A stretch of DNA of 64,000 nucleotides from a virus (Duplodnaviria > Caudoviricetes), in IMG/VR virus record IMGVR_UViG_3300033075_001751, positions 1 to 64,000 of that record. One strand, written 5' to 3'. Shown piece by piece: positions 6,637-39,475 of this stretch. The notes beneath the pieces were generated by a model that did not search any database, was not told the DNA's origin, and worked only from the letters and a program-made list of their open reading frames with translations. Made by a program: the position numbers and the translations under genes. Numbering within the stretch: the first letter of the stretch is position 1; every line of letters starts with the position of its first letter.

Positions 6637-7164
6637 ATGATGAGATACGTTATCATTGGAATTGACATAGGAAATGACGGAGCAATTGTAGTGCAACATC
6701 GTACAGGGCTCAAGTCATCTCATCCTATTGTTTGTCACCGGATGCCTGTAAAAGGTTCCAAAAAACCTTCTGTGGACATTGCCCGGTTGCGTGATATTCT
6801 TAGTCCTCACGTTGGTCAAGATACGCTTGTCATTTACGAAAGGATCGGACAAATCTTTAAGTCTACCAAAGCTACTGCCTTTTCAATGGGATATCAAAGA
6901 GGAGTGATTGAATCGCTATGCGTATCGTTAAATCTTCCTTACCTGGATGTTCCTCCGAAAGAATGGCAAGCAGAAATGTTCATTGGTACACCCGAGATGA
7001 AAACCAAAGATGATAAGCGCGATACAAAAGGTATGTCTGCTGTGGCTGCGCGGAGATTGCATCCTGAGTTGGATTTGACTTTTCCGGGAATGAAAAAGCC
7101 TTTTCATGATGGGCTTTGCGATGCTCTTTTGATTGGCGATTACGCAATACGTAAAAATCTATGA
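6637..7164 (+). CDS. RuvC-like Holliday junction resolvase
   Basis: IIGIDIGNDGAI, IYE, TAFSMG, VPPKEWQ, HDGLCDALLI. Confidence 0.9.
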   Translation: MMRYVIIGIDIGNDGAIVVQHRTGLKSSHPIVCHRMPVKGSKKPSVDIARLRDILSPHVGQDTLVIYERIGQIFKSTKATAFSMGYQRGVIESLCVSLNLPYLDVPPKEWQAEMFIGTPEMKTKDDKRDTKGMSAVAARRLHPELDLTFPGMKKPFHDGLCDALLIGDYAIRKNL

Positions 7165-7472
7165 CGATGGAAAATGAAACATTGAGGCAAGAATCTCGCG
7201 ACAAAATTCGAGAAATGCTGAACAAAGCAGATGGTGTAGAGGAAGTACTTTCGCAAGAACAAATCAAAGCTTTGCAAAAAGAGAACAGAGATTTGGAAGA
7301 TGAAGTGAAAAGTCTCGGTCGAGAACTTGAACATTTGCGTGACAAAAGTCCAAATGACATTCCGGCATACACGTTACCTGCGCAAGAAGTCGTTGATCTT
7401 GTCAAAGAAAACATTGACAAGTTGACCCGACATCATTTACTTTTTGAGGAATTTCTTCAATTGTTGGAATAA
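7161..7472 (+). CDS. hypothetical coiled-coil protein
   Basis: Heptad-rich 103-aa ORF in operon. Confidence 0.65.
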   Translation: MTMENETLRQESRDKIREMLNKADGVEEVLSQEQIKALQKENRDLEDEVKSLGRELEHLRDKSPNDIPAYTLPAQEVVDLVKENIDKLTRHHLLFEEFLQLLE

Positions 7473-7816
7473 TGGAACAGTTTGAAAAGATCAATGAGCT
7501 ACTACGACGGACTGAAGACAGAGCATTGGGTGTGACGATGCTGGAGCAGCTCACCGATCTCGAAATTCTGGTTCATGTCTTGAGCAATCCTCAAATCGTC
7601 TGGACACGTCTTCTTTCAAACAAAATTGGGGGTATGATGTCAGAACTGATTCTCAGTTCGAACATGCATTCAAAATCTGAATTTGTCGATGAGAAAGGTT
7701 TTACTGTGAATTGGGAGGCTTTCAAATCGAACGGTTTATATACCATACCTTCAATTGTGACAAAGCTCATGGTGTTGGATAAAGCTCAGATGAAATGGCT
7801 ACTGAAGTGCGTATGA
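7472..7816 (+). CDS. hypothetical protein, helical-tag paralog family
   Basis: N-terminus EQFEKINELLRRTEDRALGVTML. Confidence 0.7.
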   Translation: MEQFEKINELLRRTEDRALGVTMLEQLTDLEILVHVLSNPQIVWTRLLSNKIGGMMSELILSSNMHSKSEFVDEKGFTVNWEAFKSNGLYTIPSIVTKLMVLDKAQMKWLLKCV

Positions 7817-8211
7817 CTCCCGAGCAATGGATAAAGATTGCAGATTTAATGAAAGGAGATATTGAGTCTGTGAAGATTGGTCTTTCCATGATCAACTCTT
7901 TTCCGATGACTGGAAACCGCGCTGCTGTCGTTACCCTTGCAATTATTCTCGAAAATCATATCGGAAATAACAAAGGATCAGTTAGAGATATGTGGGCAAC
8001 CTACTGCAAGAATTGGTACTGGTTTCTCTACAGCATCAACAGTAGTTTAGCTGGAATACATTCTCCTCGTCGTGAAGTCAGAGGAAAAAGCTATCCTCAT
8101 GTTCTTATCGTATGGATCAATCAACCTAAACGCACACCAGATGAAAAAGAATGGGTCGAGTTCTACAAAAAGTGGATCGAAGACACAGATAAGGGAGGAT
8201 TCCTTCCTTAA
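7813..8211 (+). CDS. hypothetical protein, helical-tag paralog family
   Basis: N-terminus MTPEQWIKIADLMKGDIESVKIGLSMI; ATGA overlap at 7813. Confidence 0.7.
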   Translation: MTPEQWIKIADLMKGDIESVKIGLSMINSFPMTGNRAAVVTLAIILENHIGNNKGSVRDMWATYCKNWYWFLYSINSSLAGIHSPRREVRGKSYPHVLIVWINQPKRTPDEKEWVEFYKKWIEDTDKGGFLP

Positions 8212-8485
8212 AATTCTTGAGCTGGTGCGGTCCAACAGTCGAGATGATTTGAATCTTGCTTTTGTTCTTCTCGATCAATTCAAACCGAACATGTGGGAGA
8301 AAATGCAACTGAATTATACTCTCAGAAGGATTTCTGATTGGATTACAGATGACTTGGTAGAAGAACAGCCCACCCGAAAATACCTATGGGAAGGTCGTAC
8401 CTGGGATAAAATGATCCATCGTGTCGAAAAAGAGCTGTATGAAAAATGTGACGAGTTGTGGTGGACCTATTGTAATCCTTTCTGA
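8141..8485 (+). CDS. hypothetical protein, helical-tag paralog family (start uncertain: ATG 8141 or ATA 8189)
   Basis: REDSFLKILELVRSNSRDDLNLAFVLL. Confidence 0.65.
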   Translation: MKKNGSSSTKSGSKTQIREDSFLKILELVRSNSRDDLNLAFVLLDQFKPNMWEKMQLNYTLRRISDWITDDLVEEQPTRKYLWEGRTWDKMIHRVEKELYEKCDELWWTYCNPF

Positions 8486-8982
8486 TGAATGAGCAACAAT
8501 ACTTGAAAATTCTGGAGCTTCTCCGGGAAAAAGATTCAGTTGAATTGGGTAAAGAGATGATGTTGAGTTTTCGAAGAGACCTTCATCCTTTCGGGTTTGT
8601 TCTTTTTGCAATGCTTGCCTATGAAGTAGACCGGATTCGTTGGGACGACATTATGTATGGACGCGCAAGAACTTTTTTTGAAAGAGACACTTATCGTAAC
8701 GGATGTTTACATGACGTGCGATTATTAAAAGAGTGTATTCTTCACAACAGTAATTCTTGTGATGCCCTTGACAACTGGTTAAGCAAACAAGGTTTCAAGT
8801 CTTACGAGGATTCGGATCGCAAACGCCAATACTTGTTGTTGTTTTTCAGAAGACTTTATCGATTAAAGTTTTCAATTTACGATATCGAACATTGGTTGTT
8901 TGAGCTGGAAAACAATAACTCTTATACTCTTGGAGTCGAATTACCTGTTTACAACATTACTAGAGATGAAATTATCAATTAA
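8485..8982 (+). CDS. hypothetical protein, helical-tag paralog family
   Basis: N-terminus MNEQQYLKILELLREKDSVELGKEMM. Confidence 0.7.
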   Translation: MNEQQYLKILELLREKDSVELGKEMMLSFRRDLHPFGFVLFAMLAYEVDRIRWDDIMYGRARTFFERDTYRNGCLHDVRLLKECILHNSNSCDALDNWLSKQGFKSYEDSDRKRQYLLLFFRRLYRLKFSIYDIEHWLFELENNNSYTLGVELPVYNITRDEIIN

Positions 8983-8987
8983 AGAAT

Positions 8988-10241
8988 ATGGCTGAACCGT
9001 GGGATAGGCAGCACGTTATACGTGAGGCGATGTACAACTTACACCGGAAAGAACCCTTTTGGGCAGACTTTTTGGTGCAGATGCAACAAAGATGGAACGA
9101 TGAAATTTCTACTGCAGGTGTCATGTCTGCGCCGGATGGAATCAACGTTATCTTGTGCATGAACGAAGGATTCTTCCGGGAGATTGGAGCTCCTCCGAAT
9201 CCAAAATACAAAGACTATCCTTGTGGAGTACTCCAACACGAAGTACTTCATGTAGGTTTTGGTCACCACCTGACGTTCAAGGACTACGCAGACAAGCGCG
9301 TTGCAAACTTGGCAATGGATTGTCTTGTAAACTGCTACGTTCCATTTGCGGATCTACCCAATTTTGTAATGGCTGACGGAACAAAGTTCGAGCCGGTTAC
9401 AATTGCGTCTTTCCCGGAATTGAATCTTGAGCCTAAAAAGGATACCAAGTATTACTACGACAAGCTCATGCAAGCACATCAGCAACAGAGCTCTCCAAAA
9501 TTGGAAGGTCTTTTGTCGCAAATGGCTGCAGACGGGTATGGTGATACTCCCATGGAACACAAGCTATGGGAATCTTTTGAAGACATGACCGATGCTGAAA
9601 AAGCTCTGATGGAGCAGGCTGTAGGTCAAGGTTTGGTTGCTGCTTATGAACGTTTGCCGGAAGGACACAAAAGCAGGGGAATGCTTCCGGGAGAGATTGT
9701 CGAAAAGATCGGGAAGATCATGAATCCCGAACCGCCTAAATTCAATTGGCGAAAGTATTTGAGGAACTTCATTGGTAACTCCGAGGTATGCGGGACACGC
9801 AAGACTCGAAGAAAAGACAATGAAAGATATCCTGACAACCCCGCATTGAAAGTACTTCACAGGAAAAAGATTCTTGTAGGCATTGACACAAGCGGGTCGG
9901 TCAGTACTGCCGAATTGGAAGAGTTCATTCGTGAACTTACCCATATTCACAAATGCGGTACCGAGATTACAGTGGTGCAGTGCGACACTGCTATCCGGCA
10001 CATTGACAAATTCAAACCGGGCATGGAAGTTCACATCCACGGAAGGGGTGGAACAATCCTTACACCGGTATTGGAATATTTCCGAGAACGCAGCCGGGAA
10101 TACAACTGTCTTATTTTCTTTACTGACGGTGGTTGTGAAGCAACTCCCGATTGGTTCAAGCTCAGATGCTTGTGGGTTCTTTCAAATCGCTCTTGTGATG
10201 CTGATCACTTGAAGCCGTATGTTATTCGTTTAGAAAAATAA
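8988..10241 (+). CDS. DUF2201-type metallopeptidase-vWA domain protein
   Basis: HEVLH zincin motif, AN.AMD..VN, W...LR.F, MIDAS DTSGS, GRGGT, FTDG. Confidence 0.9.
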   Translation: MAEPWDRQHVIREAMYNLHRKEPFWADFLVQMQQRWNDEISTAGVMSAPDGINVILCMNEGFFREIGAPPNPKYKDYPCGVLQHEVLHVGFGHHLTFKDYADKRVANLAMDCLVNCYVPFADLPNFVMADGTKFEPVTIASFPELNLEPKKDTKYYYDKLMQAHQQQSSPKLEGLLSQMAADGYGDTPMEHKLWESFEDMTDAEKALMEQAVGQGLVAAYERLPEGHKSRGMLPGEIVEKIGKIMNPEPPKFNWRKYLRNFIGNSEVCGTRKTRRKDNERYPDNPALKVLHRKKILVGIDTSGSVSTAELEEFIRELTHIHKCGTEITVVQCDTAIRHIDKFKPGMEVHIHGRGGTILTPVLEYFRERSREYNCLIFFTDGGCEATPDWFKLRCLWVLSNRSCDADHLKPYVIRLEK

Positions 10242-10254
10242 AACCAAATTCAAG

Positions 10255-11529
10255 ATGTCGAAAAACACAGTAGTTTCGAATTTTCACGGGTCTAAACTCG
10301 ACAGTAAACAAATCGGTGATTTGATCAAGCACTTTGTGCTTACCAATCGCCAACTTCAAGCCGAAGGTAAACCTCCGGTAGCATTTTCGATTGTCGGCAA
10401 GCCCGGTATTTCCAAAACATCAATCGTCGAGCAAACAGCAGAAGAACTCGGTTTGCATTTTGTCAAAAAAGACTTGGGTCAGCTGGAAGAACTCGGTGAC
10501 TTGGTAGGGATGCCGGTCAAAGAGTTTGAGATTTCCAAGATGGAACTGATGCAAAACGAAAAAGGTGAAACCGTACCCGTTCGTGTCAAAGATTCTGAAA
10601 AGTGGGTTACCGAAGGAACTCTTTCCATTTACCTGAGCAACGGTTATGTTCAATCCGGTCGCCGCAGGACCAATACTGCAAAACCTTACTGGGTTGAAGG
10701 TTTGGGAGAGAACGGAATTCTTCTGATCGATGACTTTTCGCGTGCCGGCAGTCAATTTCAAACTGCCATCATGGAACTTGTCAGGGTTCAGACTTACGAT
10801 TCATGGAAGCTTCCAAAAGGTTGGACGATTGTTCTGACTGAAAACCCTGATGACGGATCTTACAACGTGAACAGCATTGACGAAGCGCAACGTACCAGGT
10901 TCATACAGTTTGAACAAAAATTCACAGCTGAAGCTTGGGCTGAATGGGCGGAAAAAGTTCAGATGGACAGCCGGTGCATCTCTTATATGCTCTTGAACAA
11001 GTCGGTTGTCATGACAGCCATGGACAATCCGGAGCAGCGTGTGAATGCGCGGTCGATCACAAACTTTTTCAATGCGATCAGCTCGATCAAGGACTTTAAT
11101 TCAAATCTCGCGTTGATCAACATGATCGGCGAAGGTTCGGTTGGTTCTGTCATTGCAAATGACTTTACTTTGAATTTTATCCACAAGGGCGCGGATAAGA
11201 TGATCACTCCTGAACAGGTGCTCCAAGAAGATTCCAAAAAAGTGTTTGACCGTTTGCGCGAGTTGATTCAACCAGGCTCCAATTCGGAGCGTGCAGATAT
11301 TGCTGCCATGATGATCTTCCGGCTCAACAATCACTTGATCGGTATGTGCGAGCGAGGAGAAACGATTGGAAAACCGATCAACCAGCGTGTCATTGAGATC
11401 ATGGAAAGCGATTGCTTTGGAATGGACCTCAAGAAGCGGATCGGAACCGGGGTTTTGGTTCATCCAAAGCACGGTGACAAGTTTGCTGAAGCCCGTAGTC
11501 ACAAATCACTTTTGCAAATCATCGCATGA
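10255..11529 (+). CDS. MoxR-like AAA+ ATPase
   Basis: Walker A GKPGISKT, ELGDLVGMP, Walker B LLIDDFSRA, W.LPKGW.IVLTENP, D.AQRTRF, NARS. Confidence 0.9.
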   Translation: MSKNTVVSNFHGSKLDSKQIGDLIKHFVLTNRQLQAEGKPPVAFSIVGKPGISKTSIVEQTAEELGLHFVKKDLGQLEELGDLVGMPVKEFEISKMELMQNEKGETVPVRVKDSEKWVTEGTLSIYLSNGYVQSGRRRTNTAKPYWVEGLGENGILLIDDFSRAGSQFQTAIMELVRVQTYDSWKLPKGWTIVLTENPDDGSYNVNSIDEAQRTRFIQFEQKFTAEAWAEWAEKVQMDSRCISYMLLNKSVVMTAMDNPEQRVNARSITNFFNAISSIKDFNSNLALINMIGEGSVGSVIANDFTLNFIHKGADKMITPEQVLQEDSKKVFDRLRELIQPGSNSERADIAAMMIFRLNNHLIGMCERGETIGKPINQRVIEIMESDCFGMDLKKRIGTGVLVHPKHGDKFAEARSHKSLLQIIA

Positions 11530-12578
11530 GAACACAGGATGTCGCAGTGGATTTCTCTCAAGTGAAGGAATTGACCTTCATGGGAGAAGTCCACGGCTTC
11601 TCCTGGATGGAGGACGGCGATATAAACAGAGGATTACTGATCCCGATCGTAGAAAACAAGTTTGAGAAAGTGTGTAATCTTTTAGCCGGAAATGATGCGT
11701 ATAGCCTCAAAAAAGGTGACAAGATTTACAAGATTCCTGCTTGTGCTTTCGATGACCACTTAGTGAAAAGAGTTGCTAAAAAATTTGGCGCAATGGTTAC
11801 CGATGATGTTGACAAGGCAACTGTGTTTCTCGGAAACGAAAATCTTGGAAGATGGATGGGAAGCATGGAAGTTCCCGGAAGAGACGATCTGTTTTTTCAT
11901 CATGAATATTTCAATCCGGGTAAATCGGTTTCTTATCCCCATAACAGGTGTCAATCATATTCAGTTTTGGAAGACGTATCCAATTTACCTGAAGTGTTTT
12001 CAGAAAGAGTTGTTCGTTACACTCCTATTTATGATGTATTGGCTCCTACTCGATGGGCAACTCCGCTTGGATTCAAGATTCTTTACAAATGGGTGAGTGA
12101 AAAGATACCTGTGATGTCAGAAGATTACTTCCTTAGCTTGGACGATCGTTTAAAACTGACTGCAGATCAATTCGAAAAGATTACAGAATTGTTGGAAGGA
12201 GGAGAATCTTCCGCTAAACTGGGTCGGGAAATGTTGTGGAGGATGGACTATGAGGATCCAGAGACTATTTTAAATCTTTTCCTATGGTCAAAAACCGAAT
12301 GGGTGAGGGACAAAGTGGCAACGGAAATAGGTAGGACCAAAAGAGAGCAGCTTTTCTTGCGAAAAAGCAATTTTGCACAACTTAGAAACATGACTCAGGG
12401 GGCATTTGTTGCTCACATGAAAAATGTCATTACGAAAGAGAATGTTTTGAAACTGAAAACTCTTCCCAGTGAAGTGTTTACGATTCGTACCGAGTTTTCA
12501 AAGTTGGGTGTGAGTGATTGTTATGATTTGAAACTGGTTCCAAAGAAAGGATTGGAACATTTACTGAATGAAGTATGA
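11526..12578 (+). CDS. protein with split BRCT-like domain and internal helical-tag motif
   Basis: AKKFGAMVTDDVDKATVFLG and KIPVMSEDYFL resemble the two halves of a BRCT domain; DQFEKITELLEGGESSAKLGREML follows. Confidence 0.6.
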   Translation: MRTQDVAVDFSQVKELTFMGEVHGFSWMEDGDINRGLLIPIVENKFEKVCNLLAGNDAYSLKKGDKIYKIPACAFDDHLVKRVAKKFGAMVTDDVDKATVFLGNENLGRWMGSMEVPGRDDLFFHHEYFNPGKSVSYPHNRCQSYSVLEDVSNLPEVFSERVVRYTPIYDVLAPTRWATPLGFKILYKWVSEKIPVMSEDYFLSLDDRLKLTADQFEKITELLEGGESSAKLGREMLWRMDYEDPETILNLFLWSKTEWVRDKVATEIGRTKREQLFLRKSNFAQLRNMTQGAFVAHMKNVITKENVLKLKTLPSEVFTIRTEFSKLGVSDCYDLKLVPKKGLEHLLNEV

Positions 12579-18960: not shown

Positions 18961-19272
18961 ATGGAAAAGAAATACTTAGTGAAGATCAAGTTTGACTGCA
19001 ATGATGCAGCGTATGTCTATGGTCTTCTCGTCATTGACGAAAACGATCTTAAAGGACTAAAAGATAAAAAGCGAAAGATTACACTTGGGCGAAATGAGTT
19101 CGGCGGAGCTCAACGCAAAATTGAAGACTGTCTTGAAATTAAAGAAATTTCTCATGACGATGTAGTTGTACTCAAACGATTGGGATTATTGTCATTTGGA
19201 GAAGGTGAAATGTTGGCTGACATGGAAGAGTTGAGCTTTGCATTTTATGAAAACAATCCTGATGCGCGGTAA
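18961..19272 (+). CDS. hypothetical protein
   Basis: 103-aa ORF after A-rich leader. Confidence 0.65.
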   Translation: MEKKYLVKIKFDCNDAAYVYGLLVIDENDLKGLKDKKRKITLGRNEFGGAQRKIEDCLEIKEISHDDVVVLKRLGLLSFGEGEMLADMEELSFAFYENNPDAR

Positions 19273-19691
19273 TGGAAACAACATCTGATCAAATAGTAGC
19301 AAAAATCGAGGAGTTTTGGTTTAACGGCAATCGTGAATTGGCTGTTTTACTTGCTTCTCAGATTGAAGATCCTTTTGTTTTGATGCCTTTTTACGGAAAG
19401 ATTCGAGACAATTTTGATATAATCCAAGTTCGAAATGATAGGCACCCGGAGGTAAACGCTTTCGGGTGTCCTACTATTTCGTCTCCTGAATATAATCAGT
19501 ATGCTTGGGAAAAAGCATTATCTATCCGTAATCGATATACTCGTCATCTTGCTACTCTTTGTTTTGGACGTGCAAATCAACAATGGGAAGTTGTGGAAGA
19601 ACATGTCATGAAGTTTAAACCTGTTTCTCGATTGACCTCCTATGATTGTTCTCAAAAAATGACTTCCCGAAAACTTCAATTCGACCTATGA
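19272..19691 (+). CDS. hypothetical protein, tandem paralog 1
   Basis: Helical N-terminal tag, EVNAFGCP, LCFGR. Confidence 0.7.
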   Translation: METTSDQIVAKIEEFWFNGNRELAVLLASQIEDPFVLMPFYGKIRDNFDIIQVRNDRHPEVNAFGCPTISSPEYNQYAWEKALSIRNRYTRHLATLCFGRANQQWEVVEEHVMKFKPVSRLTSYDCSQKMTSRKLQFDL

Positions 19692-20008
19692 CAACTACCG
19701 AAACTCAAATACAAAACCTGTATGAGATTGCTGATCAATACAATTGGGATTTGTTTGTATTGCTTGTTGGACAGCTTTCATTTGAAATGAAGGATAGGTT
19801 TCAGCTCGCTCCTGTTATACTTCATTTTATGGATAATCTACCTGGATTTTTTCAGTTTGACTGTAAAGAAGTAAACGTTTTCGGGACTCCTGGGGTTTAT
19901 GATCGAGGTGATGTTCGTTCTTCTTTTGCAATGGATGAAGCATGTTTTATGAGAGGTGGGGAAATAAACTTTCGTTGGGCTCAAGGAACATACTATGTTA
20001 GACATTGA
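19688..20008 (+). CDS. hypothetical protein, tandem paralog 2
   Basis: ATGA overlap at 19688; EVNVFGTPG, DEACFMRGG. Confidence 0.7.
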   Translation: MTTTETQIQNLYEIADQYNWDLFVLLVGQLSFEMKDRFQLAPVILHFMDNLPGFFQFDCKEVNVFGTPGVYDRGDVRSSFAMDEACFMRGGEINFRWAQGTYYVRH

Positions 20009-20456
20009 AAAACTACATGAACTGTTGAATACAAAAGAAGAAGATTTATTCCGATTGCTTTTTCCGCAGGTTGCAATGGAAATGGGAGAAGAGAATCGGT
20101 TTCAACTTATAGAGGTTGTACTTCATGCTGTTGATGTATTGACGTGGAACTTTGCAGCAGAATTTACAGAATTCAACATTTTCGGTAATCAAGGTTTTAA
20201 CAGTAAGGGTGATTCTCAAAACCCTGATTATTTGATAGATCGAACTTGTTATGGTAGAGGAGGAAGAGAATTTAGTGTTCAAATTGTTGAAGTTATTCAG
20301 GTCAACAAAAGACAAGTTAAAAAAGCTCCTAGGTTTGAACTTCTCATCAAAGCCGTTTCGCTTTATTTCGATTCTTCTTTTCACGGTCACATGCTTCCGT
20401 TTAACTGTCCTATAAATAACTATTACGAAAATAATATATATGAATTGGTTTTTTGA
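19995..20456 (+). CDS. hypothetical protein, tandem paralog 3
   Basis: EFNIFGNQG, DRTCYGRGG. Confidence 0.7.
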   Translation: MLDIEKLHELLNTKEEDLFRLLFPQVAMEMGEENRFQLIEVVLHAVDVLTWNFAAEFTEFNIFGNQGFNSKGDSQNPDYLIDRTCYGRGGREFSVQIVEVIQVNKRQVKKAPRFELLIKAVSLYFDSSFHGHMLPFNCPINNYYENNIYELVF

Positions 20457-28729: not shown

Positions 28730-29045
28730 ATTCGTAGATATCGCGAATAATTGAAAGACCTCTAGTAAGGTCGATATTACCTTCAAAAATTAAACGTTGT
28801 TCACCCTTTCTATTTAGAATCTCTAAAAATTTGCAACGCTCGTAGTTTAGTTTTGGTTGGGATCGCTTCTTTTCCATTGTAAACCAACACACATCGTAAA
28901 GTTTCCCCTTTGTCAAAATTGACGGTGAAGTAGAATACTTTTTTCTCCACATTTCAAATAAAGTATAACCCAAATCTCGATCTGGTTGATGTGTTGAGTT
29001 TATCAGCTCTTGACACTTTACAATTTCAACATTCAAAATCCACAC
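28716..29045 (-). CDS. small hypothetical protein inserted between giant genes (helical-tag-like N-terminus)
   Basis: Fills the ~300-bp gap; KCQELINSTHQPDRDLGYTLF; GTG/TTG start. Confidence 0.5.
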   Translation of the reverse strand: MWILNVEIVKCQELINSTHQPDRDLGYTLFEMWRKKYSTSPSILTKGKLYDVCWFTMEKKRSQPKLNYERCKFLEILNRKGEQRLIFEGNIDLTRGLSIIRDIYEYGLS

Positions 29046-32000
29046 TCCTTCATTTTTTCCCGGATCATGTGATCCGAAACCGGCTGAACTGCTTGAACGA
29101 TATTCAATCCTTCCCTTTTCACTGAATCCGCAGTAGTCATGCCGGGATTAATGTAACCGAACTCGTCAAACAATTGCTGAGACAAATATAGGAAAAGTAT
29201 TGGATTGAACGCTGGTCCTTGTTGGAGCATGTGTTGCCCATACCCCCTTTTTGCAAAGACGATTTTAGCTCCTTGAGATTGTTTTTCTTTTATACGCTTG
29301 ATCGCAGTGTCAATACCGATCATGGCTTCTTCGGTCATGTTCCCATCGTTTTCCGGAATTGCATCTACACCGGCAACAAAAGAATCGAACACAGGAAGCC
29401 CAATTGCAGCATCCGCAAGAATTGCATGAGAAAGTGATGACTCATTCATCTTACTAATCCCAGTGGTTCCTTGAAGTGCGCCATTGAATACTACAAGAAG
29501 ATTGTCAGGATTTTTGACAAGATTCGATTTAGGATAGCTTACACCACCAACTACAATGCTGGTTTGGTTGATCTCATCAAACTGAGCATTGTCCCAATCA
29601 ACTACTTTTTGATCGGGTGCAACATCTTTGATTCTTTCAAATGAAGTTTGCCAGCTTCCAATCTTTACAGTATTGGTCTTTCCAAGAATTGATTTGAAAT
29701 GTCCTACCGTCCATCTTTCCTTTTGAGACCATTGTTCAATCCATGTGGGATCGGATGTATTTTGTGCTGTAAGTTGTTCTACTCCAGTAATTCTGTATCT
29801 CTGCGGTCTATTCTCAAAAGTTACAATATCCCCCACATTCCCCAATGGAAAACTTCGTGTCGTTGCGGTACGTTCCCCCGATTCTACAAGTGCAAGAGTT
29901 GTAGTTTTCTTTCCCGTAAGGTTCTCATTGACAGGCATGTCATAAGACATTGCGTGATTCTTTACAGGACTGTCTTTTTTTACTTCTTCTTTTTTGGCTG
30001 GTTTCGCCAGATCCGACAAAGAAGAAGCATTCAGATAATCCTTACCTCGTTGACGTTCGCCACTGGAACGTTTGTTTTGGGCAACGAAATCAGAATAGTA
30101 CGCCTGCAAGAGAGTATTGTCCAGTTTACCTTCAGCTACACCATCAAGGTAATTCTCAATCATTGTGAGAGGAGCATCCATGATGTCGGTAAAGTATCGC
30201 GCCGGTATGATCCTGGTAAGTGACATTGCTCCACGAGTACTCAGACCTGATTGCAGAAAAGCATAGAAAGGAATCGCATTGAACACATCATGAATCCAAA
30301 TGTTGTCTTCACGATCGGATACAATCACTTCGTCACGATCCATCAACCTTTGAAGATTCTCATAGAGTGCATCAATCTGATCGGATGTCAGTTTGGATTC
30401 TCTGAGTTTCAAGTTTTTGTAAGGCAATTCCGTAGAGCCTTCTTGAAGTTCGCCGGTGTCAGTTACAACCATGTCCAACAAATCAAACTCTGCACGGAGT
30501 TCCGGATACTTTTGTTTGATTCGGTACACCTGGTCCGCGATGGAATTGCCGGGAGACTTGAACAGAAACCATGGGTTGTGAGTATTCATCAATGCTTTGT
30601 CGCGCAGCATACCTTCATATACCTGCCGGCGTACATGGGACTCTTGTTCCGGTGTAAGACCATCCGGTTTTCCACGAAGTGCGCGCTCCATCGAAAACTC
30701 CAACTTTTCTTTGTAAGCATTGGTATCGCGCACTGTATCGAACGAGTAGGTAGTACCGCGAAGATTTTCACGTTCAAACACAAAACGCATGTATTCTTTA
30801 CGAGTCTTAAATGCTCCAACTGGAATAGAAGCAAGACCACGTTCTGAGTAAGATCCCTTGTCGTATTCGGCTTTGGTGTAATCTGCACTGAGAGTGGCTG
30901 CGTCGTAATACAACACACCGTCTTTCATGAAGACCCCAAACTTCAACGAAGGTACTTTCTGAATATTTCCGGTCTTGACAACCGATCCTTTGTAAGTATC
31001 TTTTTCAGGATTGAATTCACCGCGCAAAGTGTTCTGGAATACCCAGGACATGAAATCGTTTGCAAATTCCGAGATGAATCGATCCTGTTGACCTTCGCCG
31101 AAAGTAGCTTCTACATCTTTACGGAATCCTTTGGATTTTACTTTTGCAAGCATGAACTCTTTCATTGCGTCATGTGTGCGCACAGTAAAGACTCCTTCTC
31201 CCCTGTTACCGCCCCAAAGAGCTACCAAGAAGTCTTGAATCTTGAAAGACGAAATAGCAGAAGCCTCATCAATCTTGTCAAGAATGTAGGTTGGAATCAT
31301 CGGATTTTGTTTCAGTTCATCCACCTGTGATGTTCGGAGATGAGCTTCAAAAAATGAATTTGTACGAGTTGTATCGTAGTTCATTCTCATTTTTACATCC
31401 CGGATTGAGTCAGCCATTCCATCAATGTGCAGAAATTCAAGAAAGACAGCTTCGTTGAAAGCATCTGACTGGTTACCGTTTACCGCTGCTTCTAAGCTTG
31501 TTTCTGTAAATTCTCCCATTGCTTGGTTCTTTGCAATGCGCATTTCTTCAACTGCTTTTACAGACTGTGGACTGTTAGGCTTTTCGATGTTGAAGTACCG
31601 TGCAAGCATTTTCTCTTTTGCAAAGTTCTTGTACCAATTGGGATTCTCCGGTGCCTGGTTGGGAAATGCTTTGCCGAAAGTAGACTGAGCAGTCTCCAGC
31701 ATCTTTTTGTATTCCCGGACCATGGGGTTGGATACAAAAAGTACCGCTTGACGAAATGGTACTCCTGCTTCAATCAAGAATTCCATTGCCGGTGTAAGTT
31801 GTTTGTTACCCTGTACATCAAAAACCCAGGCATCTTTTGCCACGTCAACCCATCCGTTGATAAGCTGTGCAATCACTTCGGAGATGACATTTTCTCCTTT
31901 TACATCCCGCTCATGGCTTAACGAAATAGCATCTTTTCCTTTGTAGGGCAAGATGTTATGCTTCATGTTGATGCTTTGTGTTTTACGAAAGGATAGTTTT

Positions 32001-35000
32001 GTCGATCCGTTGAAAGGATTGGTTTCCATCACATCATACTCGGGCTCCATGTGAAATCCGACCTGAGTAAAAATGGAACTGAATGTGTTGGCGACAGCTC
32101 CCATCCCAAGTACTTGCTTACCAACGTTGTTGGATTCCTGCTTGTACATGTTGTAAGGAATCTCGTAAACCCTTGTTGGAGAAATCGTCTTTCCTCTTTC
32201 GTTGTTCACGTTTGCCCGGGAGTCGTATTCTCTCAAGTTTGAAAGTTCATCAGCAACCGGCTTTACGATCGAAGTATCGTTCGGTGCAATGAGTGACACA
32301 AAGTTGGAATCAAGTTCAAGAATAGATTTGATGCTCTGAAGAACGCGGTTCTCTGCGGACTTCATTTTATTTCCTTTGGTAACTATTTCAAACCATTCTT
32401 CGAAGGTTTCATTGATTCCTTCTTCAGCCAACATTTCGTTCAGTTCCTCTTCAGTCCATTCGCCGAATACGGCTTCCATCAAGTTGTTGATAGGTTCGTT
32501 ACCTTTATACCTATCAAGTTTATCTACAATGTTTCCATCTTCATCGCGAGATAAATTGCGTTGAAATTCTTTGTCGTTTACTTTTTTCCAAAGTTCGAAA
32601 GCCTTGTCTCTGTCCAGATCTTTTGTAAAAATCACTTCTCCTGTATTTCTAAAGATAGATAAAGAAGGCATCAACGTTGTCATCTTGTCAATGTCAAAGT
32701 CGGATCCTGCTTTTGCTACGATCTCAGCTGGCGGAATCAAAATGTTACCGGCAGACTCAGGAAGGAACTCATACACTTCCATGAATTCCATGGAGTTGTG
32801 ACCTTGGACCGGAATACGTACACCGACCATGGTAATCAGTTGACGGTTTTTCTCAACCCAGGTAGTATCTTTCAACAACACATTCAATCGTGCAAGAGAA
32901 CCTATGATGTTACCTTCATTGTCTTTGTGCTTCAGGAGTTTTTTGAAATCTCCCTGAAGTGCGATCTTGACTTTCATCGCTGAAGTCTTACCGTTGTTAC
33001 CTTGCGGGATATAGAAAGGTAAATCGGAAGTACCGTATCGGGCAAGCTCTTCAGGGGTAGCATTGCGCAACTTACCCTTCATGAACTCTTTGTTCTCATA
33101 GCCGGTATTTGCCACGAGAACCATTGCTTCACCTTTTGCTTTCTGCTTGATGATCCGCCGGGTCACAAGAGACGAAAGAATCTTCTCGACTTTTTCCGCA
33201 GAAGGTGATACATCCGCAGGATACAGAATATTTCCAGATGAATCGGTTGTGAAAAACTCACGCTCATGGTCGGACAAATCCTGATTGCGAAGTTCATCGG
33301 TAACCAGTTTGAGCATTGCTTCCATCGAACCTTTTACCAGCACACCGTCCTTGAACTCCCACCCTGCATCGTTGTACAGTTTCTCTTTGTGAAGACGGGT
33401 AAGCTCGTTGATGTTGTCAAAATACTCTTGTTGTATTTTGTACATCGGTGAAGTATCACGTCGCTTTTGTTCTGTCGCAACCGGGTCAACTTTTCCATCA
33501 GTCATCACAACGATTTTAGACCATGCAAGTTGTCTTTCGTCATCAGATGCTTTTTTCATGAAGTCTGCCGGTACACCAAATTCAGTAAGACCGTTTACAA
33601 TGAGCTTCCTCATTTGGGTGGGGAACGTGACTTTACCTTTAAAGTGTGTGCTCATTGCGAGCTGGTCTTTCAGGTACGGAATGTGAATGACATTTGGTGT
33701 AAACCTGAATCCTTCTTTAGAGAAAGCTGTGTCAAGTGTTGCACGGTCATCGTAGAACTTATCGACAATCCCATCTGAAGTAAGTGTTGCAACTTTCGAA
33801 CCAGACAAGAATAGAGAATAGTCGATTCCCTGTTCGACCATCCGGTTGTGCAAATCTTCGAGAGGGGTTCCTTCGATTACATTAGGGATCAAAGGAGCAA
33901 GTTCAAATTTGTGAAACGCCATTGCTGTAACTCCACCGGTACGGAGCGGTCCCCAGTATTGCATTTTCCGCACAGGGAAGAATTCAGAAAGATCGAATCC
34001 GCTGATGTCTTCTTTGCGCATGATCTTTTGATAAAGCTTTTCTTGCTCGACAGACCAGTCTCCCTGTGAGTCAGCTACCAACCGGTACGCATCAAAAGCC
34101 ATCCAGCCTTGACCGTCACCCTCTTTCATACCACTGTAATCAGCCAGCTTTTTAGTAGCTTTTTCCAGTGACATACCACTACGTACAAGCGCAGCAATGT
34201 AAGTTGGAAGATAACTACTTGTGGTCTTGGTATCTTGGTGCACAGAAGTGTTCAGCGTTTTTCCCCATGCTTGACGATCTGTGATTTTTTGTCCGTCAAA
34301 TTCTTGCGGACCTTTATACCAGGCACTTGACGCATAGGGTCTACCCATTACATCATTTGCATAACGGATGTAATCAGCATCGATACGGAAGAGCTCACCG
34401 GTAGAAGATATACCGGCGTTACGTTTATGGAATCCTTCATCAGCATGGTTGTAAATTGCAATGTCACCATAGAACATGACAGTGGACTCATAGTTGTGGA
34501 TCCATGAGTTTATGACAACTGCTTCGGTCGCCATGTTCATCATTGTATCCAATGACAACTTGCCGGCTTTGGTTTTGTCTACAATAATCTTTTGTACCGA
34601 ATCAGATATGAACGGTGTCCGGTCAAACATCTTTCGGTATTCTCTGGTCTTTGCGGTCCAGTACTTGTTCAAATCCCGGGTGATTGCCGCCAGTACATTT
34701 TTCTGATCTGTAGGAAGATTCATCCCTTCTTTACTTTCCAGCATCAGATATTCTGCAAGATCGAACCCTGGAATAGCAGCAAGACTCATCAGTTTATCGC
34801 GCAACGGTTTCGAAAGAATGTCATCGAACGTATTGAAACGCGCACCGGTTTGCTTATAGGTCTCACCAGTCTTTGCGTTTACAACCAGTTTGGCGGTGAC
34901 ATCATCAGAAGATGCATTCAACATGTACGAGATTCTCCTCATCTCTGAAGTGAGGTATCCCATCATCATTCTATTTGCCATCTTCCTACCCTGTGTCGGT

Positions 35001-38000
35001 ACAGATGGATCGACCGAGTGAAAGTTACTGACTCCGATGTAGGTTGTACCGTCACTGAAAGAATTGTAGTTACCGTTGGTATTGTACTCCAACCCATTCA
35101 TATAAGATGGACCGTAGAGATAGGTACTACCTTTATCGGCATGACGAGTACCTTCTGTAAAGCCGTTGTGCAGAATGGTGTGCAAATCCATGAGGATCTT
35201 GGTTGCACTGTCTGCTGTTGCGCTGGAAACACCGTGGGAATCTTCTCCTTCAATTGATCGGGCTCCCGAGAGATTCTTAAGATTAAGAATTACCGGGTTT
35301 CTTTCACTGTCAAGTTTCCGGTTTCCTTCCTCATCGAACATCATGTTGAACCAGGCTGACTCTTTTACAAAAAAATTGTAGCGAGGATCAAGGTATTCCA
35401 TGTGAGGCATTGCAATCAATTCCGCAACAGTGTTTGCGCGGTTGAGTGAATCCACCATCATTGAGAGTGTGGAATGAAGAGATGTCTCATACTGAGAGTT
35501 ACCTGTTGCATTTTGTGACGCGAAAGACCATGGTGTATTACCATGCTTCAGTTCTATCTCAAGCAACCAGTTAAGATTCTTACCTTCATTTGCAAAAACT
35601 GATTTTGCTTTGTTGCCGCTTGAAATCTCCGAGTGTTCTGTTGCCAGTACTGTAATCTTACCAAACTTGTCGGTTACTCTTTGCTCCAAAGGTTTGGTCA
35701 TTTCACTGAGCTTTGCAGTGATTTGTTTACGCAACAAAATTCCTTCCGGTGAACCAAGCTCCTTGATGACTCCTTCGCTGCTGGAAAAATTCAAACCCAG
35801 TTGGGACCAGAACCAAAAATGATTGTCCGGAAGACGTGCTGCTTCTTGCAAAAATGAAGGGATATCCAGGAACCTGCCTTTTTCAGATTCCTTGATGTGA
35901 GGATACATGTAAGGATTGGAAATAGATTGAAAATAGGAATTCCAATCCCGGCGCAATTTTGGTGTTGAACCTTGTGCGTTACCAAAGCGAGTACTGTGTA
36001 TTGTAGCTGCAGTATCCCAGGTACCATCAGGGTTTTGCTTTTTGTTTCCCCGGGTTGTTTCCATGATCAACTCGTTCAGCGGGATCCAAGCTTTATTGAA
36101 TGTCTGCCAGAACCGGGTTTGCATTTTGGTACTGTTGGTAGGATCACCCAACTTGTCAATGATTTGAGACAGGAAAGGATTTTCTCCTCTCAAGTTTTCC
36201 ATGATTTCAATCATCTCCCGGGGACTGTTCACGTTGAGAAGATTCTTTTGAAGAACTGCCCATACTGTTTCACGCTTCATTAGTTTGCGGAAACCGAGAC
36301 GATTGAGTACAGGTTTCCCTTCGCGGTCTACTTCAATGATCGAACCGACCATTTCAAGCACACCTTCTTTGGCAAGTTCTTGCATAGAACTTTCATTGCC
36401 GGCTCGATCAAATCCTTCGCGTGCAGTTACAGCTGCATCCTGACGATCGGATTCTTCCATCTCTTCCAAGATAGCTTTCCGGTCTGCAAAGCGTGATCTG
36501 ACGATATGGTACGAAGCAACTCCTTTCTTTCCGAGCCCGTTGAGATCTCCGAAGTTTTCTATCGTAGCATTGATCAACTCAAAATCCCGAGTGCGTAAAT
36601 TGAATTCATGACGAACCTGCTCGTCTTCTTTTTCATGAAGCTTTTCAGCAAGAGCGTTTACTTCTTGAGCGATTCGCAGACGTTGTGGGACCAGGCGTTC
36701 TTCTAAGATCCATTCGTATGCCAATTGTCGGATAGCAGGATTGCGCAGAACTACGTGTACGTTCATGTACCGGGTAGGGTACTTCATCGAAGGAGTATCT
36801 ATTTCTTCCCATTGGGAAGGATCCTCTATCAATCCACTTTCAACAGCGTTATAGAACTCAGTGTATTCAGCTATGAGTCCATCGATTGTTTCGACAATAA
36901 GCTTGGAATCTTGGGCACCCATTTCAGAGTGTCCTTCACCTGGCTCAATGAGGTCGATACCCTTTTCAAACACACCGTTAAATTGGGTTTCCTCATAAGA
37001 AGCAACCTTGAATTTTCCACTGTGGAGTTTTTGGTACATCTCGCGTACCATTGGGACTTCACCGACAAGTCCTTCCGCAACAGTGGCATCTGAGAAAAGA
37101 GCTTTAAGAATAGCCCAGATTTTTTGAAAAAACGTTTTGACAGGAGACAGCTCAGGTTCTTTCGCACCGCCGGTAAGAACATATTGGCGAAATCCTTCTG
37201 CCAACCATTCTTCAATTTCCAGATCATCTGCAACCCGGAAAGAGCGAGTCTTACCTTTATGAGTTTTGAATGTTCCGGATTGTTTCCGGACCGCATCGTA
37301 GAGTTTCTTCTTTTTGTTTCCAAGCACAAGCGTGGAAAATCCGTGCCAGGCTTCGTGGTAAATGTCTGTGCGGTCAGACCCTCTCCAAAGCACAATACCG
37401 TTGCGTGAGAATGTTGCAACTGCATTTGGATTGTCGGTACTTACCAGATCGTAAGCTTCTTCCAATGTGATTACTTTGGAAAGAGGACTTGCGTCAAACC
37501 ATCTTTTTGCTTCGTCTTGCTGTTCTTTTGATGAGAAATCGTTCAAGACTTTTTGAGCGCGTCCTTTTTCAAAAACTTGTTTTGTGCCGGCGGTGTACTT
37601 TTTTGCTTGTCCTTCAGTTTTTCCTTTTTCTTTATTCTCTTTCTTTTTTTCTTCTGACTTTGGTGTTTCGAATTTGAAAGAGAGATATGGATTCAACTGG
37701 ACAAATTTTCCTTCAGCATTTGTCTTGAGGTTTACAAACGAAACGGATTTGATCCATTCATTGTAACTGGTCTGCTTACCGGTTACAAGATCTCCTTCTG
37801 CATCAAAATGAAAAGGAGTGTATTTTCCATTTGCTTCCCGGGACTTCAGGTTGTATTGGACCTGGCGGACCCTTGTAAAAGTTTCTGTTTTGTTCCGCGT
37901 GCGTATCAAATCTCCTTGCTTTGCATTGTTTTCCCAGTCTTCAGTAGAATCCCAAATTCTAGCGGAACTTTCTCCGTTTGAAATTGCCTTTGCAAGTTTT

Positions 38001-39475
38001 CGAGCATTTGATTGAGACTCTTTGCTTCCTTCGACACGTTTTGAAAAGGCAGCTTTCAGCAGTACGTCCAAGCCGGCTGTGTCGTAAGGATAAGATGTAG
38101 TACCAATAACAACCGCATCCAAAGTAATATTCACTTTGGACATGGACTTGGGACCGAGCAAAACAATACTTTCAATCAGATCTTTCTTCTGTTTGATTGT
38201 GATTGGAATTTTACCCTTGTAGAGAATGAGCTTTACAACCCTGTCAATGTCTTCTTCGGACAGCGCATTCATCCAAAGCTTTTGTGACTGGGTTACTCCA
38301 GGGATGATGACAGACAGATCCATGACATCTCCAATTACACCAGCTTCAACTGTAATCTCACCAATCTGTACTTCTGACAGCTGTTGATTTTTGAATGTCG
38401 GTTCAATGAATCCTTCGGAACCACTTGTGATTTGAGCAGATACAGAATTGTTCGCCCGATCTTGATTGACATGCGCAACAGCATTTTCAACCATATCCGT
38501 CTGAGCTTCGATCAAAGCTCCGTACCTGTTTATCTTTACTTCCCGATCGATCGTATTGTCAGGATCATTGTCAGCAAGCTCATACGCGTTTTGCGCATTG
38601 TTCATTTTCGTAGAGCCTTCCCTTGCATACGGATCAAACCTTTCACCGGCAGCATTGCGAGTTTTGCGCATGGGAAAGTACAGCAAGCGTCCATCTGCTG
38701 AAACGTTACCGTCTTCATCAAACCTTACAATGTTACCTGCACGGTCTGTAATGACCATGACAACATCAGATTCCTCGTATGCTTTGTTTGCATCGGGATC
38801 TTGTATTTTGTCCCGGTCTGCTGAAGTGAGATCGTTTACATCAACTCTGTTGAAAGCAATTGCATTGAGTTTGAGTGGTCCGCCCAATCCCGGATACACC
38901 CAGTCATCGTTCTCTTTGCCGTTGGTAAGAGCAACAACCTTTTGAATCACTTTTGTGTGCAGTACCTTTTCAGGATCGGGAACATTCAGACTAGCTGGTA
39001 TCTCTTTTGTATCGATTGCTGTCTGACCGGTGGTACTCATGAAGTCTGCCGGTCTTGCAGTTGTCACTCGTCTTACCGCAAAAGGAGAAGGAGTTTCTTG
39101 TTGCGGCTGCGCTGCTTCCTCGATGTTTGGTTTTTCTTCTACAACTGGTTCTTCTACTTTGAAGAAGTCTTCTACTGCTTTGAGTCCTGCAACAGGATCC
39201 ATAAAAGAATCTTCAAGCGAGTAAATCTCATCAGAAGCTTTGGCGATTTCACGTTTTGCTTCTACAAAACCTGTAGCTTTTCCAATCTGAGCAGGAACCA
39301 TTGCTACTTGAGTATACACCCAGGCTTTGTCATCACTCACTTTGGAAAACAGCTCTTTCATCTTTTCCATGAAAGCCTTGACATCAAAAGCTTCACCTTT
39401 GGGATGAGCTTTGAGACGCTTATACACAATCTGGAATACCCGGCGTTCAGAAGAACTATCTATTGGACACTGCAT
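29033..39475 (-). CDS. virion-packaged single-chain DNA-dependent RNA polymerase (crAss-like, phi14:2 gp66 type) with accessory domains
   Basis: Catalytic AGSDFDIDK (~32685-32710) preceded by RIPVQGHNSM; DGQGW..AYR, SGSKV, TQMRKLI; HEAWH (~37345); C-terminal ASCH-like insert. Confidence 0.92.
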   Translation of the reverse strand: MQCPIDSSSERRVFQIVYKRLKAHPKGEAFDVKAFMEKMKELFSKVSDDKAWVYTQVAMVPAQIGKATGFVEAKREIAKASDEIYSLEDSFMDPVAGLKAVEDFFKVEEPVVEEKPNIEEAAQPQQETPSPFAVRRVTTARPADFMSTTGQTAIDTKEIPASLNVPDPEKVLHTKVIQKVVALTNGKENDDWVYPGLGGPLKLNAIAFNRVDVNDLTSADRDKIQDPDANKAYEESDVVMVITDRAGNIVRFDEDGNVSADGRLLYFPMRKTRNAAGERFDPYAREGSTKMNNAQNAYELADNDPDNTIDREVKINRYGALIEAQTDMVENAVAHVNQDRANNSVSAQITSGSEGFIEPTFKNQQLSEVQIGEITVEAGVIGDVMDLSVIIPGVTQSQKLWMNALSEEDIDRVVKLILYKGKIPITIKQKKDLIESIVLLGPKSMSKVNITLDAVVIGTTSYPYDTAGLDVLLKAAFSKRVEGSKESQSNARKLAKAISNGESSARIWDSTEDWENNAKQGDLIRTRNKTETFTRVRQVQYNLKSREANGKYTPFHFDAEGDLVTGKQTSYNEWIKSVSFVNLKTNAEGKFVQLNPYLSFKFETPKSEEKKKENKEKGKTEGQAKKYTAGTKQVFEKGRAQKVLNDFSSKEQQDEAKRWFDASPLSKVITLEEAYDLVSTDNPNAVATFSRNGIVLWRGSDRTDIYHEAWHGFSTLVLGNKKKKLYDAVRKQSGTFKTHKGKTRSFRVADDLEIEEWLAEGFRQYVLTGGAKEPELSPVKTFFQKIWAILKALFSDATVAEGLVGEVPMVREMYQKLHSGKFKVASYEETQFNGVFEKGIDLIEPGEGHSEMGAQDSKLIVETIDGLIAEYTEFYNAVESGLIEDPSQWEEIDTPSMKYPTRYMNVHVVLRNPAIRQLAYEWILEERLVPQRLRIAQEVNALAEKLHEKEDEQVRHEFNLRTRDFELINATIENFGDLNGLGKKGVASYHIVRSRFADRKAILEEMEESDRQDAAVTAREGFDRAGNESSMQELAKEGVLEMVGSIIEVDREGKPVLNRLGFRKLMKRETVWAVLQKNLLNVNSPREMIEIMENLRGENPFLSQIIDKLGDPTNSTKMQTRFWQTFNKAWIPLNELIMETTRGNKKQNPDGTWDTAATIHSTRFGNAQGSTPKLRRDWNSYFQSISNPYMYPHIKESEKGRFLDIPSFLQEAARLPDNHFWFWSQLGLNFSSSEGVIKELGSPEGILLRKQITAKLSEMTKPLEQRVTDKFGKITVLATEHSEISSGNKAKSVFANEGKNLNWLLEIELKHGNTPWSFASQNATGNSQYETSLHSTLSMMVDSLNRANTVAELIAMPHMEYLDPRYNFFVKESAWFNMMFDEEGNRKLDSERNPVILNLKNLSGARSIEGEDSHGVSSATADSATKILMDLHTILHNGFTEGTRHADKGSTYLYGPSYMNGLEYNTNGNYNSFSDGTTYIGVSNFHSVDPSVPTQGRKMANRMMMGYLTSEMRRISYMLNASSDDVTAKLVVNAKTGETYKQTGARFNTFDDILSKPLRDKLMSLAAIPGFDLAEYLMLESKEGMNLPTDQKNVLAAITRDLNKYWTAKTREYRKMFDRTPFISDSVQKIIVDKTKAGKLSLDTMMNMATEAVVINSWIHNYESTVMFYGDIAIYNHADEGFHKRNAGISSTGELFRIDADYIRYANDVMGRPYASSAWYKGPQEFDGQKITDRQAWGKTLNTSVHQDTKTTSSYLPTYIAALVRSGMSLEKATKKLADYSGMKEGDGQGWMAFDAYRLVADSQGDWSVEQEKLYQKIMRKEDISGFDLSEFFPVRKMQYWGPLRTGGVTAMAFHKFELAPLIPNVIEGTPLEDLHNRMVEQGIDYSLFLSGSKVATLTSDGIVDKFYDDRATLDTAFSKEGFRFTPNVIHIPYLKDQLAMSTHFKGKVTFPTQMRKLIVNGLTEFGVPADFMKKASDDERQLAWSKIVVMTDGKVDPVATEQKRRDTSPMYKIQQEYFDNINELTRLHKEKLYNDAGWEFKDGVLVKGSMEAMLKLVTDELRNQDLSDHEREFFTTDSSGNILYPADVSPSAEKVEKILSSLVTRRIIKQKAKGEAMVLVANTGYENKEFMKGKLRNATPEELARYGTSDLPFYIPQGNNGKTSAMKVKIALQGDFKKLLKHKDNEGNIIGSLARLNVLLKDTTWVEKNRQLITMVGVRIPVQGHNSMEFMEVYEFLPESAGNILIPPAEIVAKAGSDFDIDKMTTLMPSLSIFRNTGEVIFTKDLDRDKAFELWKKVNDKEFQRNLSRDEDGNIVDKLDRYKGNEPINNLMEAVFGEWTEEELNEMLAEEGINETFEEWFEIVTKGNKMKSAENRVLQSIKSILELDSNFVSLIAPNDTSIVKPVADELSNLREYDSRANVNNERGKTISPTRVYEIPYNMYKQESNNVGKQVLGMGAVANTFSSIFTQVGFHMEPEYDVMETNPFNGSTKLSFRKTQSINMKHNILPYKGKDAISLSHERDVKGENVISEVIAQLINGWVDVAKDAWVFDVQGNKQLTPAMEFLIEAGVPFRQAVLFVSNPMVREYKKMLETAQSTFGKAFPNQAPENPNWYKNFAKEKMLARYFNIEKPNSPQSVKAVEEMRIAKNQAMGEFTETSLEAAVNGNQSDAFNEAVFLEFLHIDGMADSIRDVKMRMNYDTTRTNSFFEAHLRTSQVDELKQNPMIPTYILDKIDEASAISSFKIQDFLVALWGGNRGEGVFTVRTHDAMKEFMLAKVKSKGFRKDVEATFGEGQQDRFISEFANDFMSWVFQNTLRGEFNPEKDTYKGSVVKTGNIQKVPSLKFGVFMKDGVLYYDAATLSADYTKAEYDKGSYSERGLASIPVGAFKTRKEYMRFVFERENLRGTTYSFDTVRDTNAYKEKLEFSMERALRGKPDGLTPEQESHVRRQVYEGMLRDKALMNTHNPWFLFKSPGNSIADQVYRIKQKYPELRAEFDLLDMVVTDTGELQEGSTELPYKNLKLRESKLTSDQIDALYENLQRLMDRDEVIVSDREDNIWIHDVFNAIPFYAFLQSGLSTRGAMSLTRIIPARYFTDIMDAPLTMIENYLDGVAEGKLDNTLLQAYYSDFVAQNKRSSGERQRGKDYLNASSLSDLAKPAKKEEVKKDSPVKNHAMSYDMPVNENLTGKKTTTLALVESGERTATTRSFPLGNVGDIVTFENRPQRYRITGVEQLTAQNTSDPTWIEQWSQKERWTVGHFKSILGKTNTVKIGSWQTSFERIKDVAPDQKVVDWDNAQFDEINQTSIVVGGVSYPKSNLVKNPDNLLVVFNGALQGTTGISKMNESSLSHAILADAAIGLPVFDSFVAGVDAIPENDGNMTEEAMIGIDTAIKRIKEKQSQGAKIVFAKRGYGQHMLQQGPAFNPILFLYLSQQLFDEFGYINPGMTTADSVKREGLNIVQAVQPVSDHMIREKMKECGF

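Follow-up and report, generated by a model that had tools for sequence, protein, structure and literature searches.

A predicted two-helix hairpin of about 28 residues is shared by four small proteins and one larger protein encoded on either side of a zincin metallopeptidase-vWA gene and a MoxR-type AAA+ ATPase gene in the virus record IMGVR_UViG_3300033075_001751 (Duplodnaviria; Caudoviricetes), and its link to the accessory proteins flanking the vWA/MoxR pair looks ancestral, because sister genomes have it in such flanking genes only. The window, meaning the whole 64,000-nt stretch analysed, is the first 64 kb of this complete 133,958-bp virus record (CheckV 100%). The hairpin is referred to below as the tag, the four small proteins headed by it upstream of the pair as carriers A to D, and the protein bearing an internal copy downstream of the pair as F (Table 1). 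The tag occurs 34 times in the full genome, an expansion that, by comparison with the sister clade, is best described as an innovation of the window lineage (in which F2, one of the sister-clade tag proteins, is absent); there it appears to have spread to the four genes upstream of vWA and to about 28 genes in plus-strand blocks of small genes. The new element here is evidence, drawn from the sister clade, for an origin of the module in the vWA/MoxR-flanking genes, and by analogy with known systems the hairpin may be a docking module for an uncharacterised protease-vWA/MoxR machine.

All five motifs quoted in a first-pass annotation of this DNA were found in real open reading frames (ORFs) on the plus strand, the fifth being internal to the protein encoded after the AAA gene, as that annotation had it (Table 1). 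The consensus of the hairpin reads Q-[FLW]-x-K-I-x-E-L-L-x-S-x-D-(4-6)-L-G-x-x-M-L, with x-[FLW]-x-K-I-x-E-L-L forming helix 1, S-x-D the turn, and L-G-x-x-M-L helix 2. The 23-25 residues originally quoted were too short, as between-family profile alignments span 26-52 columns. A strict regular expression recovered no further copy in the six frames of the 64-kb window. In a leave-one-family-out scheme, in which a 36-column hidden Markov model (HMM) was searched against the 2,464 six-frame ORFs of the genome, the omitted families were recovered at E=5.8e-8 (A), 0.04 (B), 0.028 (C), 4e-7 (D), and 1.6e-4 (F). When all ORFs were shuffled, in five replicates, the iterated HMM matched nothing at E<1, and its 29 real matches all lie on the coding (+) strand; the motif scores far above these controls. 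Orthologues in L001 and L002, two related metagenomic contigs at about 50% identity, retain the motif (L001 has one extra carrier), and the tag of carrier B is kept by its orthologues in L001, L002, and P0040. The leave-one-out recovery, the empty shuffles, and the retention in orthologues are the reasons for which the motif is not attributed to chance. Across 86 distinct copies, one lysine (K4) is invariant and both the acidic +3 residue and the helix-2 G/A are 98-99% conserved; conservation of that acidic residue, the two leucines, and the helix-2 L-G together ranges from 79 to 99%.

The same motif had been thought special to the vWA/MoxR neighbourhood, a view that did not survive a search of the full genome. 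The motif profile located 34 places, all on the plus strand, of which five are in the window by the vWA/MoxR pair and 29 at 88.5-94.6, 107-114, 119-125, and 130 kb. The 28 small carriers are about 100-215 aa long; the tag sets in at aa 1-7 in 22 of them and at aa 9-12 in another four, and the copies are mutually 18-40% identical at the protein level, with conservative substitutions. The description of the C-termini as unrelated holds at the level of sequence, since the in-window carriers, once stripped of the tag, each match their own orthologues only. The C-termini of 29 carriers fall into about 27 clusters between which no relation was found, iterated HMM searches included, and one subfamily has related beta-type C-termini. 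The same arrays are present in related contigs (13 carriers in L008 and 17 in L011), where they start from a divergent junction with structural genes. ORF 110828-111487 (219 aa) has one tag near nt 110942 and another near nt 111116; its second half is a separate 134-aa gene in the relative P0020, and two carriers seem to have been joined here by fusion or read-through. Another tag-bearing ORF, at 93395-93703, is without a start codon and overlaps the 3′ end of gene 93084-93548.

A search of 1.84 billion representative proteins with the tag profile yielded 39 matches at E<=1e-3. Of these, 37 are small, have the motif at or close to the N-terminus, and look like products of the same phage lineage; one of the other two is a bacterial protein, P0029, discussed below, and P0034 was set aside as an unrelated repeat protein that matches part of the motif only. 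No new architecture emerged from a search for longer motif-bearing proteins, and nothing below E 0.35 was returned by the tag profile from PDB sequences. The tandemly triplicated genes at 19272-20456 of the window, which have N-terminal helices, are not family members, giving no match to any tag HMM even at E<=10.

The origin of the tag can be approached through a sister clade of 105-125-kb phages, represented by 343 IMG/VR loci and carrying vWA homologues about 40% identical to that of the window. The gene order there, shared with the window, is primase, a gene of about 129 aa, a gene of about 100 aa designated up, vWA, MoxR, F1 (about 345 aa), F2 (about 385 aa), PD-(D/E)XK nuclease, and polymerase, with the 3′ end of up overlapping the vWA start by 8 nt. 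A small ORF (<200 aa, mostly 79-104 aa) ends at the vWA start in 80 of 80 sister loci, and both F1 and F2 follow MoxR in most. In profile comparisons using hhalign, the tag was aligned to aa 214-254 of the window F (P=9.3e-9), aa 240-267 of F2 (P=2.9e-5), aa 12-37 of up (P=2.2e-4), and aa 221-250 of F1 (P=6.8e-3), and up was aligned to F1 through their hairpin regions (P=1.7e-4). The window F and F1 are colinear over 257 columns (P=1.6e-4), and F1 and F2 are paralogues (P=5.5e-17, 263 columns). The tag HMM of the window lineage matches 34 of 36 F2, 9 of 43 up, and 3 of 39 F1 proteins directly, at the expected positions. When a hairpin HMM trained on the sister clade was applied to three near-complete sister genomes, up and F2 were its only matches (E 2.4e-12 to 3.6e-16), with nothing else at E<0.05; applied to the window genome, the same model ranked tag carriers as its top six matches and found none in shuffles.

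The motif is not a general companion of the phage vWA/MoxR pair. No match to the tag at E<=1 was obtained in five other phages possessing the pair (Pollock, Vibrio 1.097.O, S-TIM5, nACB1, and Moorella MTATph1) by the same search that recovers 34 copies in the genome of the window. The co-occurrence anticipated in the first-pass annotation is borne out in the sister clade, where only the flanking genes bear the hairpin, and fails in all five of these phages.

The identification of the neighbours as a DUF2201 zincin-vWA protein and a MoxR AAA+ ATPase was confirmed by both Pfam and PHROG. The former scored 55.1 bits against DUF2201 (cut-off 26.4; 1.1e-14), 33.8 bits against DUF2201_N (cut-off 23.2; 3.5e-8), and matched phrog_1314 at 5e-51; it contains HEVLH at aa 84 together with H93, and the metal ion-dependent adhesion site (MIDAS) motif DTSGS at aa 300. 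Because the zincin and MIDAS residues (H84, E85, H88, H93, D300-S304, and D380) are invariant across 103 vWA homologues, the enzyme looks active; its lineage-specific insertions are small and uninformative. The ATPase matches phrog_1297 (1.7e-29) and Pfam AAA (24.4 bits; cut-off 21.2), with a score against AAA_3 of 26.5 bits lying slightly below the 27-bit cut-off. Its Walker A is GKPGISKT and its Walker B is LLIDD, with Asp-Asp and not Asp-Glu, identically so in the L001 and L002 orthologues. In L002 (1259-2778), the zincin-vWA gene is called in two pieces of 101 aa and 372 aa, a possible frameshift or assembly error.

The AAA ATPase gp24 and the vWFA protein gp25 form an uncharacterised core gene pair of N4-like phages (PMC4193335). 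The vWA and MoxR genes of the window belong to the same families (PHROG 1314/1297), as judged from the profiles, HExxH, MIDAS, Walker A, and adjacency, the Walker B being D-D, and they sit within the replication module, which is also their place elsewhere among phages. The order of vWA, MoxR, and then F distinguishes the window from the N4 arrangement, and the five other pair-bearing phages differ from it in being without hairpin-tagged accessory genes. The pair is likewise adjacent in L001, L002, L016, and other phages examined, and it is widespread, being represented in 258 phage records and by 1,857 homologues at E<=1e-10. Among isolates (a collection of 50,697 phages), the best match to the vWA protein is about 26% identical and the best match to the polymerase about 32%.

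The assignment of the tag as a two-helix hairpin derives from AlphaFold2 (AF2) models of carrier A and F. The model of carrier A, built on a 58-row alignment, contains four helices (aa 2-12, 14-25, 30-37, and 46-62) with predicted local distance difference test (pLDDT) values of 78-90 over aa 1-66, and the first two of these helices, which are the tag, belong to a confidently modelled unit some 65 residues long; no reliance can be placed on the C-terminal half. The model of F is poor overall (pLDDT 38.8) and usable for aa 210-300 only, where the hairpin appears as helices 213-223 and 227-238 (pLDDT 50-70) inside a moderately confident helical region. In carrier A, the hairpin is thus predicted to be packed against further helices rather than free. 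Fold searches with carrier A (PDB Foldseek, BFVD, and VIA wide) returned generic alpha-solenoid or helical-bundle matches only, all Foldseek matches having E>2 and the best VIA match (Z 7.6 over 63 residues, root-mean-square deviation 2.4, to the Ctf4 helical domain) lying in the generic range for helical bundles; an ESM Atlas look-up with carrier D gave no usable match. The tag recalls a HEAT/ARM-type hairpin in its helix-turn-helix form, its L-L-x-S-x-D turn, and its small helix-2 residue, as well as in the alpha-solenoid nature of its weak best structural matches and in sub-threshold Pfam matches to ARM-like families. It differs in that no match is significant (best Z 7.6) and in that the tag unit is single and not a repeat array.

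F itself comprises a weakly BRCT-like N-terminal region (about aa 60-115) and a helical C-terminal half, and the alignment of F, F1, and F2 conserves the pattern KKxAFxLP...VKxxLKEHGxxVT...ADLxxG. The “BRCT-like” label given to it earlier is sustained by weak hints and not by any match of the window protein: 3 of 44 members of the F/F1/F2 family match BRCT Pfam below threshold (best E 0.008), and the best PDB matches of the family profile, also weak, are to the BRCT of NAD-dependent DNA ligase (LigA, 1l7b, E=0.094; next 2.7). The N-terminal part is unreliable in the AF2 model (pLDDT <45), and its BRCT identity is suggestive, not established. Searches of the 50,697-phage collection with F, as protein and with the DNA of its region, found nothing, and related-locus searches with F and, among viral contigs, with MoxR gave no relatives.

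A precedent for a shared helical module in such a setting is provided by the bacterial vWA-MoxR ternary systems, in which small helical effector-associated domains (EADs) are found in the core third component and at the termini of variable proteins encoded nearby or elsewhere, the proposal being that homotypic contacts between these domains couple the components; lineage-specific copies are most alike (Kaur, Burroughs, Iyer, Aravind 2020, PMC7159879). The hairpin is likened to an EAD because its architecture matches this principle: there is an internal copy in F, copies at the termini of the adjacent carriers A to D, and 29 more elsewhere, and in the sister clade up, F1, and F2 flank the pair. 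It is likewise a small, non-enzymatic, all-alpha module, one copy of which resides in the core third protein and others on the ends of variable proteins, and copies of the same lineage are again the closest (tag against window F, P=9e-9; against sister F1, 7e-3). The differences are that the hairpin is found in phage and not in a bacterial defence locus, that the window vWA protein is of the DUF2201 zincin type and the third protein is not VMAP, and that as many as 34 copies, on carriers without a recognisable effector domain, are present in one 134-kb genome. Zincin peptide processing has also been described beside vWA-MoxR systems, the precursors being small proteins that diverge rapidly except for a conserved terminal peptide of the FxSxx-COOH type (PMC7159879). 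The window shares with these the vWA-MoxR context and a zincin near many small, fast-diverging proteins with a common terminal segment, and departs from them in having, as that segment, a helical stretch of about 28 residues at the N-terminus; cleavage here is putative, and the operon showed no radical-SAM partner.

Outside phages, a single protein matches the tag significantly: P0029 (222 aa), encoded at L007:10001-10669 on a bacterial contig (Logan SRR11785053). Its hairpin occupies aa 10-38 and precedes a DUF6272 domain. Within 9 kb the contig also has genes for a bpMoxR ATPase, a CHAT protease-like protein, an AAA protein, and a leucine-rich repeat protein of 1,533 aa, and in P0029 bacteria may be using this hairpin in the manner of an EAD. 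A related-locus search with it among genome contigs returned no relatives.

By this analogy, we incline, tentatively, to the view that the hairpin is an adaptor of the EAD type, docking variable small proteins onto an F/zincin-vWA/MoxR machine. The carrier hairpin would then pair with the hairpin-bearing helical domain of F; alternatively, it could be a handle recognised by the vWA MIDAS/zincin while MoxR remodels or releases the client. Beyond the analogy, the proposal draws on the significance of the family, the N-terminal position and modularity of the tag, the paired helices modelled in carrier A and F, the tie to the pair in the sister clade, and the active look of the partner enzyme. A more elaborate version, in which some 30 small proteins bind different host or phage targets and share the hairpin as a plug into one F/zincin-vWA/MoxR machine that unfolds, cleaves, or assembles the target, must be counted as improbable, and the targeting of host defence proteins for cleavage would be pure conjecture. 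Several observations weigh against the docking proposal. Twenty-nine of the 34 copies lie 13-55 kb away from the pair, and the five other phages with the pair are without the tag. The sister-clade similarities are short and modest, with up directly matched in the 9 of 43 cases only. The hairpin of carrier A packs on two more helices in the model and may be a structural core, not a free docking surface. Between orthologues, the tag (0.42-0.73) and the remainder (0.26-0.53) are about equally conserved in most comparisons. Finally, the 28 carriers are without any Pfam domain at E<0.05-0.1, and hence without the effector or signalling domains seen on partners in EAD systems or any recognisable enzyme domain, and neither carriers nor F matched a Pfam EAD family at the same threshold, at which remote homology is possible.

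Some of these observations would be explained by common descent alone, that is, by a tandem-duplicated family of fast-diverging small proteins in which the N-terminal helices serve as a folding nucleus, no partner is shared, and the copies in F and up merely mark the origin. The arrays are long and translationally coupled, as is typical of duplication, the hairpin is integrated into the four-helix unit of carrier A, homology between families extends past the hairpin, the tag and the remainder are similarly conserved between orthologues, and a subfamily with related beta-type C-termini exists. What such an account leaves unexplained is that the roughly 27 C-terminal clusters show no relation even by iterated HMM, that the conservation of K4, the acidic +3 residue, and the helix-2 G/A goes beyond the needs of a simple hairpin, and that F, at 350 aa and with another architecture, has the tag in its interior. 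Common descent alone is accordingly kept as a possible, somewhat doubtful explanation, with the docking proposal still preferred.

Rather unlikely, in our judgement, is the idea that the hairpin docks elsewhere, onto an abundant host hub (RNA polymerase, the ribosome, or a chaperone or AAA+ protease of the host) or some other component of the phage, so that many host-takeover proteins share one address. It draws on the position of most copies in a plus-strand block of small genes starting from a divergent junction at 88.5 kb, as likewise in related contigs, and on the small, domain-less nature of the carriers, which is that of host-takeover proteins. A host-hub address would not explain the confinement of the hairpin to vWA/MoxR-flanking genes in the sister genomes, however, and no candidate hub was identified. 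The chance of a mere resemblance between amphipathic helices, or of a translated nucleotide repeat acting as a promoter or ribosome-loading signal, is negligible. The motif is indeed short, helical, and found at gene starts, but every match is read in frame within a real plus-strand ORF, no matches occur in shuffled ORFs, the copies diverge as proteins through conservative substitutions, and the tag is both internal in F and retained in orthologues at about 50% identity, controls by which this reading is refuted.

If the hairpin is a docking element, the clients or adaptors are already listed in the carriers, and the tag could serve as a pull-down reagent. Were the improbable delivery scheme true, it would parallel, in phage, the viral families of substrate adaptors with a common docking domain, and would supply a first function for the widespread N4 gp24/gp25 pair. 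In either event, the products of genes around the pair are marked by one module, which in one lineage has reached a fifth of all genes; even if it does not dock, the joining of a constant 28-residue head to unrelated bodies in 34 members makes this family an unusual phage example of modular gene birth.

Table 1. Genes of the zincin-vWA/MoxR locus and positions of the hairpin tag (nt, window coordinates)
Feature	Position	Strand	Hairpin tag or remarks
RuvC-like gene	6637-7164	+	label by eye from sequence alone
103-aa coiled-coil protein	7161-7472	+	
Carrier A, 114 aa	7472-7816	+	tag aa 3-28, nt 7478-7555
Carrier B, 138 aa (132 aa if ATG 7813)	7795-8211	+	tag nt 7825-7902, from aa 11
Carrier C, ~114 aa	8141-8485	+	ORF open from 8072; tag nt 8201-8278, aa 44 of open ORF
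Carrier D, 165 aa	8485-8982	+	tag nt 8497-8574, from aa 5
Zincin metallopeptidase-vWA (DUF2201_N + DUF2201, N4 gp25-like), 417 aa	8988-10241	+	Pfam, PHROG
MoxR-type AAA+ ATPase (N4 gp24-like), 424 aa	10255-11529	+	PHROG, Pfam
F protein, 350 aa	11526-12578	+	internal tag aa 215-240, nt 12168-12245
PD-(D/E)XK nuclease, two small genes, DNA polymerase (phrog_1252)	3′ of F	+	

The plus-strand genes between 6.6 and 16.6 kb either overlap or are closely spaced, the gaps ranging from -71 to +13 nt. The stop of carrier D lies 5 nt upstream of the vWA gene, and the intergenic gap between vWA and MoxR is 13 nt. Carriers A to D and F gave no Pfam or PHROG match. Carriers B and C overlap, with the motif of C setting in 10 nt ahead of the stop codon of B. 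The third carrier had been placed at about 8189; its motif is real, whereas its start is most likely the nearest ATG, at 8141, which gives a 71-nt overlap with B. In L002, the orthologues of B and C overlap by 35 nt with a GTG start, and the orthologue of carrier C begins 8 residues ahead of the motif.

Two further observations concern other parts of these genomes. A 3,480-aa ORF on the minus strand of the window (29033-39475) has no PHROG match at E<=1e-5. In L011 (1557-4805), a 1,082-aa protein of the structural block has Hint/LAGLIDADG homing-endonuclease matches, which suggests an intein.

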